Shown piece after piece: positions 4,150 to 29,352 of a DNA stretch of 38,097 bases (its first letter is position 1; every line of letters starts with the position of its first letter). Source of the DNA: a virus (Duplodnaviria > Heunggongvirae > Uroviricota > Caudoviricetes); IMG/VR virus record IMGVR_UViG_2778261087_000005, one strand, 5' to 3'. Made by a program: the position numbers and the translations under genes. The notes under the pieces are model-generated. The model was not told the DNA's origin and made no database searches. It worked only from the letters and a program-made list of their open reading frames with translations.

Positions 4150-4580
4150 CTTTAAAAGCTCCCCGGCCTGGGTAAGCACCTCGCTGGCGTCTACGTTAAG
4201 CAGTAGTGGCGCCGTTTTTTTATCTGCCATACACACCCCTCTGTTTGTTTACCGTCAGCCCCTCGCAAAGAGCTGCTGGTAAATCGCTTTGCCATAATTG
4301 CCGCTCTTCCTGAGCCCGCCTATGGTCCGACGCATGGTTTACTGTCGCGCCGTTCGACTGACCAAATCTCCACTTCGCCGCTGGCTAACTTCGCTCAGCT
4401 GTCGATGTTTCGTTTCGATGGATTGATAATGTACCAATAGTTCATTCATGTAAAGTACCATAAGTACATTTTCTGTGAATAGAAAGTTCATATGCAATTA
4501 TCTTTATGAACTTTAAGGAGAAATATTTTTGAGTTTTTTATTGATTGAGGCGAGGGGGGGGATGGGGCTGGTTTGATTTA

Positions 4581-5168
4581 TTAGAGGTTCGTCACATCAA
4601 CAAGCCTTGTGTGACCATTGAAAGTTGCGAAAAGTCCGCCGTCTGGCTCAACTACTGAAAGTTCAGCGTATCGAAGGAAGTCTGTTTTGATAACGGACAT
4701 CAACACCTCTCCGGTATCAATGTTTATGACCTCAAGCCGGTGCGCGTAAAAATCATCTTTGTTTTTGCTGCCGGCAAACGATAGGGCGATGTAGCGCCCA
4801 AATTCAGATATGGACGAACTGATGAGGTGAGTGGAAGTTTCTATCTTGAATAACTCTTTCCCGGTGTTATCCATGACTATGGCTGCAGCCATGTTGTTGT
4901 CTTTGCCGGTATGTATAGAAAATAAAAATCGCCCGTTAACAGCTATGCATTGAGGCTTAGGAGAAAGCTGCCCGCCGAGCTTAACCATAAACATGAATTT
5001 TTCATTCTTCAATACCGCCAGAGTGTCATCTCTGAGATTGCTTTCATCACGCTTGAAAGCACCTAGCTGCCAACATTTATCGTGGCTTAATTTGCAGGTG
5101 ATGAAGTGGTCGCCAAGCTCGTATAAGGCGCTTCCATCACTCAGATCTGTAACCTTAATTGCTTCCAT
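4581..5168 (-). CDS. Unknown 195-aa protein co-operonic with the CI repressor (cargo gene)
   Basis: ATG 5168 lies 11 nt downstream of the cI stop with SD GAGGAAG; no TM segment; visibly more AT-rich than flanking phage genes; no family recognised. Confidence 0.7.
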   Translation of the reverse strand: MEAIKVTDLSDGSALYELGDHFITCKLSHDKCWQLGAFKRDESNLRDDTLAVLKNEKFMFMVKLGGQLSPKPQCIAVNGRFLFSIHTGKDNNMAAAIVMDNTGKELFKIETSTHLISSSISEFGRYIALSFAGSKNKDDFYAHRLEVINIDTGEVLMSVIKTDFLRYAELSVVEPDGGLFATFNGHTRLVDVTNL

Positions 5169-5179
5169 GCTTAACTTCC

Positions 5180-5935
5180 TCAGCTATGAAATCTGTATGC
5201 CCTTGACTGGCTTACCAGCACTTTCGCGCAGATGCGGAGAGAAGAAAAATCACCATCTTCGATGTACCAGGTTTCATATTTTTTATTGTCTGAAATCACA
5301 GCTAATTTTTTGTGCTGCTTTTGAAGTCGCTTTATGTAGAGATCATTGTCCAGAACGAAAATGTATATGCCGTCACCGTCAAAGCAGTCGATGCTGACGT
5401 CGACGAAGATCTGGTCTCGCGGCTCGAACGTGCCAGACATCGAATCGCCATTCACGGCAATCATTTTTATGTGGTCAGCTGGGCGCCCACCAAATACGGC
5501 GCGAGCCTCTTCGGTTGAATACTCTATGGATCGTATTGTTTCAATGAACTCATCTCGCACAAGAATTCCTTGCCCAGCGCTAGCTTGAATATCAAAAACG
5601 TCTACACGGAAAGAATCGTCCCTCATTGCCATATGCCCTTCAGATATGCCATCTGCTGCACTATCGCCTAATAGGTAAGACGAGGATGTGCCAATTATAG
5701 CCGCCAGTTCCTGCAGCTTGCCACGTCTTGGAATAGCCTCCCCATTGAACCACTTGCTTACCGCTTTAGGCGTGAGCTTCATTCGCTTGGCTATTTCAGC
5801 CTGACGTCCATGAGCAGGTAAACCAGCTTTATCACAGGCCAGCGCTAGCCGTTGGGAAAACTCTTTACGCGCTTTTTCTTCTTGAACCATAGGTTCAATC
5901 ATAATATCACTTGCGTGAACTATCAGTTCCGACAT
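5180..5935 (-). CDS. CI-like prophage repressor (N-terminal HTH, C-terminal LexA-type S24 peptidase)
   Basis: HTH region GRQAEIAKRMKLTPKAVSKWFNG; C-terminal AVNGDSM (Ser) and IYIKRL (Lys) dyad motifs. True start may be ATG 5902 or 5890 rather than 5935 (see findings). Confidence 0.8.
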   Translation of the reverse strand: MSELIVHASDIMIEPMVQEEKARKEFSQRLALACDKAGLPAHGRQAEIAKRMKLTPKAVSKWFNGEAIPRRGKLQELAAIIGTSSSYLLGDSAADGISEGHMAMRDDSFRVDVFDIQASAGQGILVRDEFIETIRSIEYSTEEARAVFGGRPADHIKMIAVNGDSMSGTFEPRDQIFVDVSIDCFDGDGIYIFVLDNDLYIKRLQKQHKKLAVISDNKKYETWYIEDGDFSSLRICAKVLVSQSRAYRFHS

Positions 5936-5938
5936 AAT
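5882..5938. promoter_or_regulatory. Immunity-region operators and pR-like promoter
   Basis: Perfect palindrome TTGAACCATAGGTTCAA (5882-5898) and palindrome GAACTATCAGTTC (5917-5929) sharing a TGAAC half-site; the second sits in the spacer of a candidate sigma70 promoter TTGCGT(5911-5916)-16 nt-CATAAT(5933-5938) facing cro. Confidence 0.45.
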
Positions 5939-5970
5939 ATGTACCTACAGTTCAATTTGAGGGTTAACAA

Positions 5971-6198
5971 ATGCAACCTAAGAACCTTGGCGACATCATC
6001 AAGCAAATCCGTGTACCGGTGGTGGCGAAGGCTTGCGGGCGCACTCCCCGCGCTATCTACAAGTGGATTAACAGCGGTTGCCTGCCGCGTACCGATTACA
6101 CCGGCGAAACAGGTTATGCGTCCAAAATCGCAGCTGCATCTGGTGGTCAGTTTACCGAGAACCAGATCCTTGAAATCAGTAAACCAAAAGCCGCTTAA
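5971..6198 (+). CDS. Cro-like HTH regulator
   Basis: 75 aa, divergent from cI; SD GAGGG 8 nt upstream; HTH-like segment RTPRAIYKWINSG. Confidence 0.7.
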   Translation: MQPKNLGDIIKQIRVPVVAKACGRTPRAIYKWINSGCLPRTDYTGETGYASKIAAASGGQFTENQILEISKPKAA

Positions 6199-6227
6199 CG
6201 GCGGCCCTAACCACGAAAGGGAAAGAA

Positions 6228-6794
6228 ATGCATTCACTTGCGTATCAACAGAGTAGCGGACTTGAACAACGTCCGTTGATTTCGATTTATCAAAGTGTTC
6301 CGCGTAATAACCGTAAGCTAACTCGAATACGGGAGGCAGTTAAGGCCTGGCAAAAAGCTACGCCGGGCCAGTCTCAGGTTCACATTTCTCAGCTGGTTGC
6401 GAAAGAGTGGCTGGCGCGCGGCGGGAAGGGGTTGTTACTGGCAGGTTCTGAACACAACACGAAGCAGAACTTCTTCCGGATGATTAACGATCCGGGCCCG
6501 AAGAACGACAAGGGGTTGATGCTACTGATCCCCGTCATTATCGACGTGATGGCGCGGGATAACGAGAAAGTGGCGAGAGAGTTCGGTCTGGTCGCAAAGA
6601 CTGAGGCCGAACTGATAGCCGAGGCCATGAAAGAGTGCACTGAAGCGCATCAGGCGAAGTTACTTGGTCAGCCGATACAACGCCTTGAGAAAGAGGTGAG
6701 AGAAGCTGCTGAAGCACTGCTGCGCTTCCTGCCAACTGAATCAATCGCTGCGGTGGTGACAAGTCTGGCCGCTATGGCGCCGGGAGTTATGTGA
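6228..6794 (+). CDS. Regulatory protein in the cII position (possibly YdaT-like)
   Basis: 188-aa ORF immediately after cro; function assigned from position only; family not confidently recognised. Confidence 0.45.
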   Translation: MHSLAYQQSSGLEQRPLISIYQSVPRNNRKLTRIREAVKAWQKATPGQSQVHISQLVAKEWLARGGKGLLLAGSEHNTKQNFFRMINDPGPKNDKGLMLLIPVIIDVMARDNEKVAREFGLVAKTEAELIAEAMKECTEAHQAKLLGQPIQRLEKEVREAAEALLRFLPTESIAAVVTSLAAMAPGVM

Positions 6795-14861: not shown

Positions 14862-14926
14862 ATAGCATACTTTTCATGTAAATCTGATATCTTCGCCATA
14901 GCTTTGTAGGACGACAAAGAATTAAC

Positions 14927-14958
14927 AGCCTCGCCATCGTGCGGGGCTTTGTTTTTTG
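14927..14958 (+). terminator. Intrinsic terminator about 65 nt downstream of the Q-position gene (tR'-like)
   Basis: 8-bp stem AGCCUCGC/GCGGGGCU with a 6-nt loop, followed by UUGUUUUUUG. Confidence 0.55.
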
Positions 14959-27820: not shown

Positions 27821-28576
27821 ATGCAAGGCTGTGTTAATGATTTTGGCAAGCTGATCGGGAAAGTAGCTGTGCTACGCATGGCCTTTGGCTGCCCCGACAC
27901 AGTGCCAGCGCTTTCCGAGTGGAAGCGTCTCGGCGCTATGACGACTAAGGGTCTCGATTATTCGATGAACACCATCAACTCCGAGGCAGATGATGCTAAA
28001 GGGCTGGTGGAGAACCTGGTCAACAACATGGATCTGACGATCTCCGGCGAAGGGGAGTTTCGCAAGTCTGATAAAGATAACGAGATTGGCGCATGGCGTC
28101 TGTCGAAGTACATCTTTGACGAAGTACAGGCTGGCCGTCAGCCTAATCTGTGGGTGCGTTTCGACTTCGCGGGTGAGAACGCCGGTACTTATATCCAGGG
28201 TTACATGAACACCACTTCATGGTCTGGTGACTTCGGTACCAACGATATCTCAACTTTCTCCGGCGAGTGGAAGGTCTACGACGCCGACACTGTCGTGTTT
28301 GAAGTCGCTGATTCTATCGCGGCCACTGGCGTTGAAGTTACCCCTGCAACTGCATCTCTGGTCGTTGGCTCAACCCAACAACTCAGCGGCGCGGTTCAAC
28401 CAACCGATGCGACTAACAAGGCGATCACCTGGACTACTTCGGCGCCATCCATCGCCACTGTCAGTTCAACCGGCCTGGTGACAGCAGTTGCCGAGGGCAC
28501 CGCGACTATTACGGCTACCACTGCTGACGGTAATTTCGCCGACACCTGTGCAGTTACCGTTACTGCCGCGCCGTAA
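27821..28576 (+). CDS. Major tail protein with C-terminal Ig-like (Big_2-type) domain
   Basis: 251 aa; C-terminal Thr/Ala/Val-rich segment (VTPATASLVVGSTQQLSG...ITWTTSAPSIATVSSTGLVTAV) typical of Ig-like domains on lambda gpV-type tail tubes. Confidence 0.7.
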   Translation: MQGCVNDFGKLIGKVAVLRMAFGCPDTVPALSEWKRLGAMTTKGLDYSMNTINSEADDAKGLVENLVNNMDLTISGEGEFRKSDKDNEIGAWRLSKYIFDEVQAGRQPNLWVRFDFAGENAGTYIQGYMNTTSWSGDFGTNDISTFSGEWKVYDADTVVFEVADSIAATGVEVTPATASLVVGSTQQLSGAVQPTDATNKAITWTTSAPSIATVSSTGLVTAVAEGTATITATTADGNFADTCAVTVTAAP

Positions 28577-28626
28577 TCACTACAAAGGGCGGCGTGCTGC
28601 CCTTGATACTGGTTATGGAGAACGAT

Positions 28627-29352
28627 ATGACACCTTTGAAAGAAATTGGCGAGTGCCTGATTGGTACTGGAGACAGTGAATACTTCTTCCGCCCATCATT
28701 CCGTAACATGACTCGGATCGGCGAACCAGAACATATCGTCCGCACCTTCTATGCGCTGTTCAATGAGGATGTGGCAAAGATGCTTGAAGCGGCGCGCGAA
28801 ATTCACAGTGCGATACCAGAGCATCAGCGCAGATTTTACGCCCACTATTTCGGTGACGTTTCGCTGCCACGCTGGGCACTTGATGCAGCAGGCTCTGCCG
28901 CGTTTGTGCGTGATGCATTACTCTCGGCTATTAACGTCATTCAGTCCTGCTGTGACGAGGACGTTTCTGAACTGACAGGATGGCATGAGCCATCACGCAC
29001 TGGACGGCGAACGTTTGTATGGCGCCGTGGCGCGCTGCCGCCGGAGAACCTTATTCTGATAGCTCAGTCGCTGATCATGCATGGCGTTATCGGACGGGCG
29101 AAGGTTCGTAAGTTGCAAAAGCACGAAAGCAAGGAAACGACACCGGAGTTCCATGCAACTGAATACATCATGGCGGCGCGAAACCATTTTGGGATCAGCA
29201 GGGAAGAGGCTGAAAACCTTACCATGACCGAATTCGCCATGATGCTTAACGCCAAATACCCTGACCAGAAAGGCTTCACCAGGGAAGAGTACGACGCGGT
29301 TATGGACGATGATGAACGTCGTTGGCAGGAAATGATGAAACGCGAAAATTAA
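28627..29352 (+). CDS. Tail assembly chaperone (G/GT position)
   Basis: ATG 28627 with SD GGAG; lies between the major tail and tape measure genes; no frameshift partner identified. Confidence 0.5.
   Translation: MTPLKEIGECLIGTGDSEYFFRPSFRNMTRIGEPEHIVRTFYALFNEDVAKMLEAAREIHSAIPEHQRRFYAHYFGDVSLPRWALDAAGSAAFVRDALLSAINVIQSCCDEDVSELTGWHEPSRTGRRTFVWRRGALPPENLILIAQSLIMHGVIGRAKVRKLQKHESKETTPEFHATEYIMAARNHFGISREEAENLTMTEFAMMLNAKYPDQKGFTREEYDAVMDDDERRWQEMMKREN

Follow-up and report, generated by a model that had tools for sequence, protein, structure and literature searches.

We identified the right operator (OR) of a lambdoid prophage at positions 5882-5970 of a 38,097-nucleotide virus sequence of the class Caudoviricetes (IMG/VR record IMGVR_UViG_2778261087_000005), the whole of which we call the window. 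The interval lies between the repressor gene cI on the minus strand and cro on the plus strand and, judged by sequence comparison, is the OR of an HK022-type immunity region, a known arrangement. We consider it highly probable that this OR combines three repressor sites with the promoters pR and pRM, and that cI begins at ATG 5890, encodes 236 amino acids (aa) and is expressed from a leaderless or near-leaderless pRM messenger. The immunity region is 100% identical to that of chromosomal prophages in several E. coli strains, and an identical repressor is found in an Enterobacter soli contig.

Repressor sites of the right operator

Three putative operators, each of 15 base pairs (bp), follow the palindrome TGAACN5GTTCA, and their centres at 5890, 5923 and 5947 are 33 and then 24 bp apart:

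5883..5897, no strand: cI-proximal operator, OR3 in the lambda convention; TGAACCATAGGTTCA, an exact match to TGAACN5GTTCA
5916..5930, no strand: middle operator, OR2; TGAACTATCAGTTCC, one mismatch to TGAACN5GTTCA
5940..5954, no strand: cro-proximal operator, OR1; TGTACCTACAGTTCA, one mismatch to TGAACN5GTTCA

OR3 has its dyad centre at position 5890, the first base (A) of the cI start codon. OR2 sits in the pR spacer and includes the pRM -35 hexamer, and OR1, the inverted-repeat partner of 5882-5897, covers the predicted pR start. An earlier note on this DNA (the original prediction) had described two TGAAC-based palindromes with centres about 33 bp apart; both are present at that distance, and a third, at 5940-5954, had been overlooked. 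The first of them, 5882-5898 (TTGAACCATAGGTTCAA), had been called a perfect 17-mer, which is not strictly the case, because the inner pair A5889/A5891 is mismatched: the 7-bp arms flank ATA, and seven of eight pairs are complementary. This palindrome had also been said to overlap the ATGs at 5902 and 5890; it does contain the latter, and the former (5900-5902) lies 2 nucleotides (nt) outside it.

Allowing at most one mismatch, TGAACN5GTTCA occurs five times in the 38 kb of the window, compared with 1.34 expected occurrences, and a count of five was reached by only one of 100 shuffles. The five sites are confined to two short stretches, 5883-5954 and 4430-4490, which flank the repressor operon; three constitute OR, and the other two (4430-4444 and 4476-4490) belong to the left operator (OL). 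The OR aligns site for site with that of phage HK022, which reads TTGAACCATAAGTTCAA, 33 bp, TGTACTATCAGTTCC, 24 bp, TGAACCATAAGTTCA and then cro. At the HK022 locus (L007), the counterparts of OR3, OR2 and OR1 are TGAACCATAAGTTCA at 5123-5137, TGTACTATCAGTTCC at 5156-5170 and TGAACCATAAGTTCA at 5180-5194, respectively. The hexamers of pR and pRM occupy equal positions in both phages, and in both the cI-proximal site has the cI ATG at its dyad centre. The products of the adjoining genes are likewise related, with 139 of 233 identical residues for cI (60%, E = 2e-109, full length, aligned from Met1 of both proteins) and 40 of 73 for cro (55%, E = 2e-30).

The operator half-site co-varies with the recognition helix of the repressor: TGAAC accompanies TPKAVSKWFN, TTAAC accompanies S[TE]PG[VI]WKWFN, and GTAC accompanies SSKAVSKWLN. 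This pairing provides the best evidence obtainable from sequence alone that the palindromes are the repressor's own operators. Wherever three sites are visible in the lineages compared, their centres lie at about 0, -33 and -57. Specific and highly cooperative binding of the HK022 repressor to its sites is attributed to Carlson and Little 1993 in the passages of PMC8053113 and PMC7498355 that cite that study. The idea that our palindromes arose by chance, or serve a host factor rather than this repressor, thus has to contend with their enrichment and clustering at OR and OL, with their site-for-site match to operators reported to be bound cooperatively by HK022 CI and with the co-variation of half-site and recognition helix, and its probability appears negligible. 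For the HK022 CI operator located about 300 bp downstream of OR, a search allowing up to two mismatches returned no counterpart, either in the window or in HK022.

The start codon of cI

The longest cI open reading frame (ORF) covers 5180..5935 on the minus strand, encodes 251 aa and contains in-frame ATGs at 5935, 5902 and 5890. With cro beginning at 5971, a start at 5935 leaves 35 bp between the two genes, a gap that the original prediction had pointed out and that the coordinates bear out. That note had instead favoured an internal start in the first palindrome, at 5902 or 5890; only the second of these holds up, backed by the HK022 annotation, by conservation, by the -10 hexamer in front of it and by the lack of a Shine-Dalgarno (SD) sequence. 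The true repressor is probably the 236-aa protein, and RefSeq, with 251 and 240 aa, probably extends it too far:

5180..5890, minus strand: cI repressor coding sequence as revised; 236 aa, with the Pfam domains HTH_3 and Peptidase_S24
5891..5935, minus strand: open extension of 15 codons that holds OR2, the pRM promoter and half of OR3; probably not translated

HK022 offers the most direct comparison. Its 'CI protein' is annotated in GenBank AF069308 at 28422..29129 (235 aa), and the ATG of this gene (CAT at L007 5128-5130) is the centre of the cI-proximal palindrome, equivalent to ATG 5890 of the window. The gene has been cloned as '...tagttgaactt ATGGTTCAACAGAAA...', and functional CI was made from that ATG (PMC8053113). 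One repressor homologue in the database has an N-terminus whose printed part is the same as that of the HK022 ORF.

Conservation points to the same codon. In an alignment of 28 protein sequences, no residue before F26 is invariant except Met16 of the long ORF (ATG 5890), and more distant homologues from Edwardsiella, Pantoea, Erwinia and other genera start exactly at the position of this Met. Close E. coli relatives are 97% identical to the window at OR and could not separate the candidate starts, so that 80 more distant loci were taken. The ATG equivalent to 5890 is kept in all 17 distinct TGAAC-type sequences, an ATG stands there in every locus examined, and in all lineages examined, be they of the TGAAC, TTAAC or GTAC type, a 15-bp palindrome has its dyad centre on the A of this codon. 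The frame upstream of it is in several cases unable to supply a start: in loci of the TTAAC type (many Pantoea species and Rahnella), an in-frame TAA precedes the conserved ATG by two codons, and loci L016, L022 and L082-L088 have no in-frame ATG upstream. The clearest example is the Enterobacter sp. BIGb0383 locus L016, which has the same three operators and 22 open codons among which no ATG, GTG or TTG occurs; it carries TATAAT at both -10 hexamers, and both upstream ATGs are thereby lost.

A start at 5935, as in the 251-aa RefSeq protein WP_033817244.1, would mean that the coding sequence takes in pR, pRM and two operators and that the conserved peptide ELIVH...IEPMVQ is a functional N-terminal extension. 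It yields the longest ORF, was called by the NCBI Prokaryotic Genome Annotation Pipeline (PGAP) in two genomes, and agrees with 78 of 120 database homologues that are called with the extension (8 are called from Met12 and 16 from Met16). Two observations on the DNA itself also count against the shorter repressor. No TGAAC-type relative has a stop codon in the extension, which is weak evidence, since chance alone would keep about half of them open; and ATG 5935 of this window is preceded at 6-7 nt by a weak SD-like motif, GUAGGU, with an anti-SD duplex energy of -3.7 kcal/mol. This motif is not conserved, as relatives have GUAAGU. Read on the other strand, the CAT of the pR -10 hexamer CATAAT becomes ATG 5935, and the predicted pRM start lies downstream of that ATG. 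The invariant residues of the extension (E3, L4, V6 and E14) correspond to GAA-CTG...GTT and GAA, that is, to operator half-sites, and positions 10-11 are hypervariable. A third-position bias is likewise missing: the minor-allele sums for the first, second and third codon positions are 10, 12 and 17 in the extension, compared with 67, 45 and 273 when the same 12 sequences are counted over codons 17-91, a contrast that is suggestive rather than a formal test because the sequences are related. These counts were made on an indel-free subgroup, since the one-codon indel of the HK022 subgroup confounds the wider set. Together with the annotation and functional expression of HK022 CI from the Met16 equivalent and the lack of a start codon in the extension of L016, this makes the 251-aa protein very unlikely.

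The intermediate start at 5902, which gives 240 aa, corresponds to the 723-nt PGAP annotations in E. coli 1218KP, 30EVA1, ET846 and H6, and we consider it even less plausible. Its ATG lies inside the pRM -10 hexamer TATGAT and has no SD (-1.4 kcal/mol). An equivalent is absent from HK022 (TATAGT), L016 (TATAAT) and the further relative L020 (TATTAT), and Met12 is present in only 34 of the 78 extended homologues and absent from the other 44. Both upstream ATGs are probably by-products of promoter sequences, and neither would be part of a pRM transcript. The automatic annotations disagree among themselves, with a 756-nt gene in two genomes and a 723-nt gene in four at an almost identical OR. In six E. 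coli RefSeq records (L001-L006), near-identical repressors are named as XRE family, LexA family, S24 family peptidase or helix-turn-helix regulator, and none of these annotations begins at the counterpart of the HK022 CI start codon.

Promoters and a proposed working of the switch

The candidate promoters between cI and cro comprise four hexamers:

5911..5916, plus strand: pR -35 hexamer TTGCGT, read from the sequence; TTGACT in HK022, with TTGnnT conserved
5933..5938, plus strand: pR -10 hexamer CATAAT, after a 16-bp spacer; read from the sequence and from HK022 homology
5921..5926, minus strand: pRM -35 hexamer CTGATA, 17-bp spacer, within OR2; from the promoter scan, conserved as CTGATA or CTGAAA
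5898..5903, minus strand: pRM -10 hexamer TATGAT, 7 nt upstream of ATG 5890 and including the in-frame ATG 5902; from the promoter scan

A consensus promoter scan of 5600-6300 returned a sole promoter-like match, the minus-strand CTGATA-17-TATGAT, and a separate scan of HK022 returned CTGATA-17-TATAGT at the homologous position. Among the 17 distinct TGAAC-type relatives, the pRM -10 hexamer reads TATnnT without exception (as TATGAT, TATAGT, TATAAT, TATGCT or TATTAT) and keeps its distance, despite changes in the 'codons' that overlap it. An extended -10 element, TGaTATTAT (5909..5901), was considered for pRM and set aside; the position of TATGAT is conserved in every relative, and the scan picked it in both phages. 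The pR candidate TTGCGT-16-CATAAT agrees with the consensus at 8 of 12 positions and remains under the scan threshold, compared with 10 of 12 for the HK022 promoter TTGACT-16-CATAAT, which was detected. The second palindrome does lie in the spacer of a pR-like promoter, as had been proposed, although the description of that promoter as good was too generous.

Because the conserved -10 hexamer lies 7 nt before ATG 5890, and because no SD is present there (+0.4 kcal/mol, compared with -5 to -9 for neighbouring genes), the cI maintenance mRNA is likely to be leaderless or nearly so, of the lambda pRM type. The lambda cI mRNA from pRM is leaderless, and in lambda (gatagatttaacgtATG) as in the window a -10 hexamer stands 6-7 nt before the cI AUG with no SD. 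Both immunity regions also share divergent pR and pRM promoters, three repressor sites between cI and cro, and a repressor that combines a helix-turn-helix with an S24 self-cleavage domain. The DNA-binding domains and the operators are, however, unrelated in sequence. The cI-proximal site of the window is centred on +1 and the AUG, whereas OR3 of lambda lies in the pRM spacer, and OR2 and OR3 are 33 bp apart instead of 23 bp.

Two features weigh against a leaderless messenger from this pRM. First, with a transcription start at 5890, OR2 would be centred at -33 and overlie the pRM -35 hexamer, unlike OR2 of lambda, which is centred near -42, where bound repressor activates pRM. The predicted pRM may thus be misplaced or differently regulated. 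OR2 is unchanged among close relatives, and its -33 position is conserved. Second, relatives L022 and L040 (CCCCAGGAA and CCACCAGGAT) have the SD-like AGGA in place of the -10 hexamer, 8-14 nt upstream of the cI ATG, so that leaderless expression is not shared by the whole family; the motif points to a cI mRNA with a leader in these two lineages.

Both features would suit an alternative in which cI starts at 5890 and its maintenance mRNA is leadered, arising from a promoter further upstream (to the right), with the ATG used without an SD. Establishment transcripts, running antisense through cro, would be leadered in any case, and in the construct described in PMC8053113, HK022 CI is expressed behind 20 nt of native leader. 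The same study, however, marks 'PM -10' within these 20 nt before the HK022 ATG, the scan of 5600-6300 found no other minus-strand promoter, and TATnnT stays fixed at 7 nt in all 17 TGAAC-type relatives while its flanks vary. We therefore regard a leadered maintenance mRNA as unlikely.

With a leaderless pRM messenger, the switch could work as follows. The three TGAAC-N5-GTTCA sites would be bound by the prophage's own cI repressor, and presumably by Cro too. While pR would drive cro rightward, repressor bound cooperatively at the sites centred on 5947 and 5923 would cover the start and the spacer of pR, thereby silencing cro and keeping lytic transcription off. pRM would fire leftward from a start at or within a few nt of A5890. 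At high repressor concentration the site at 5890 would be occupied as well, covering the pRM start and the start codon, which would amount to negative autoregulation. How pRM would respond to the OR1-OR2 pair is a matter of speculation: the cooperative pair that silences pR might also inhibit pRM, or repressor and the sigma subunit might share the DNA at -33 from opposite faces, as opposed to the activation from -42 in lambda.

The repressor is of the cI/LexA type, with an S24 domain (PF00717, E = 2.4e-18) in which S119, A120, G121, S165 and K202 (251-aa numbering) are invariant. Since these residues provide the Ala-Gly site for cleavage and the Ser/Lys dyad, RecA-stimulated self-cleavage is predicted as the means of induction. 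The operator arrangement of HK022 has been described as unlike that of lambda, possibly affecting the control of the immunity promoters (PMC8053113). That an HK022-type switch logic distinct from lambda's is conserved, perhaps across the whole repressor family, is a tentative idea that we put forward with some doubt.

Left operator, neighbouring genes and relatives

The OL lies just past the far side of the repressor operon, as expected in a lambdoid phage; it aligns site for site with the OL of HK022, and its centres at 4437, 4461 and 4514 repeat the 24- and 53-bp spacings of HK022 (4331, 4355 and 4408):

4430..4521, no strand: OL, with sites at 4430-4444, 4454-4468 and 4507-4521 and an extra near-consensus site at 4476-4490
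4454..4426, minus strand: candidate pL, TTTACA-17-CATTAT, with an operator site within its spacer
5971..6198, plus strand: cro-like gene, 75 aa, phrog_35 match; SD GAGGG at 5959-5963

A distance of 53 bp between OL2 and OL3 of HK022, and looping of OL to OR by HK022 CI, are both reported in PMC8053113. Downstream of pL, a stretch at 4290-4362 on the minus strand is conserved with HK022 (CGAACGGCGCG...TAAACCATGCGTCGG...GGCGGG.TCAGGA.GA.CGGCAAT) and separated from OL by a 58-nt insertion relative to that phage. As it occupies the position of HK022 putL, the prophage may use RNA-mediated antitermination. The stretch has no Rfam match and folds no better than shuffled sequences, and the 15-mer tried as a probe for a second copy (putR) found none.

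Besides the shared layout, the window differs from HK022 in several respects. Its pR -35 hexamer is weaker (TTGCGT versus TTGACT), and its pRM -10 hexamer reads TATGAT instead of TATAGT, which creates the additional in-frame ATG 5902. It also has the extra OL site at 4476-4490 and an inserted ORF of 195 aa at 4581-5168 (minus strand), located between cI and OL, 11 bp past the cI stop codon, with an SD of its own (-6.2 kcal/mol). This ORF takes the position of rexAB in lambda; HK022 has no such gene, and the end of its cI adjoins OL. Searches of Pfam, PHROGs, PADLOC and NCBIfam returned no match, and we consider the ORF a candidate for an accessory or defence gene expressed in the lysogen.

On the other side, the cro-like gene has an anti-SD duplex energy of -6.1 kcal/mol, and the similarity to HK022 stops at its end, which marks a mosaic joint. 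The cII position (6228-6794, plus strand) is occupied by a 188-aa 'CII-like' protein of the YdaT family (phrog_163), which is not of the HK022 or lambda cII type, and is followed by a replication O gene and a DnaB gene. Elsewhere, the only Rfam family matched in the window is the Hfq-binding small RNA isrJ, at 14877-14950 on the plus strand (54.8 bits, compared with a gathering score of 37).

Two observations concern the relatives. Among about 40 Pantoea, Erwinia and Mixta species (L023-L074), most Pantoea species have a homologue whose ATG forms the centre of a TTAAC-N5-GTTAA palindrome; the upstream sequences are almost alike, and a single clear operator can be seen. This homologue may not belong to a prophage but be a domesticated, autoregulated repressor conserved on the chromosome. 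A 1026-bp contig labelled Streptomyces sp. NPDC002677 (L015) carries an HK022-like cI and OR, the printed stretch of which is close to Kluyvera and Escherichia relatives; it probably represents enterobacterial or phage contamination of the Streptomyces assembly.

The main value of these results lies in annotation, as they indicate a corrected cI start and a repressor of 236 aa where RefSeq gives 251 aa or 240 aa for near-identical copies; they open no new biological question. The apparently conserved N-terminal peptide of the longer gene models would be operator and promoter DNA read in frame, and thus a case of regulatory DNA that mimics protein conservation. As the A of the start codon is the dyad centre in at least three lineages of differing operator specificity, the gene's first three codons (M-V-Q/K) serve at the same time as half of an operator site, an overlap that would tie the N-terminal arm of the repressor to its own operator. 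The match between the operators of this prophage and those of HK022 furthermore bears on superinfection immunity between such prophages.

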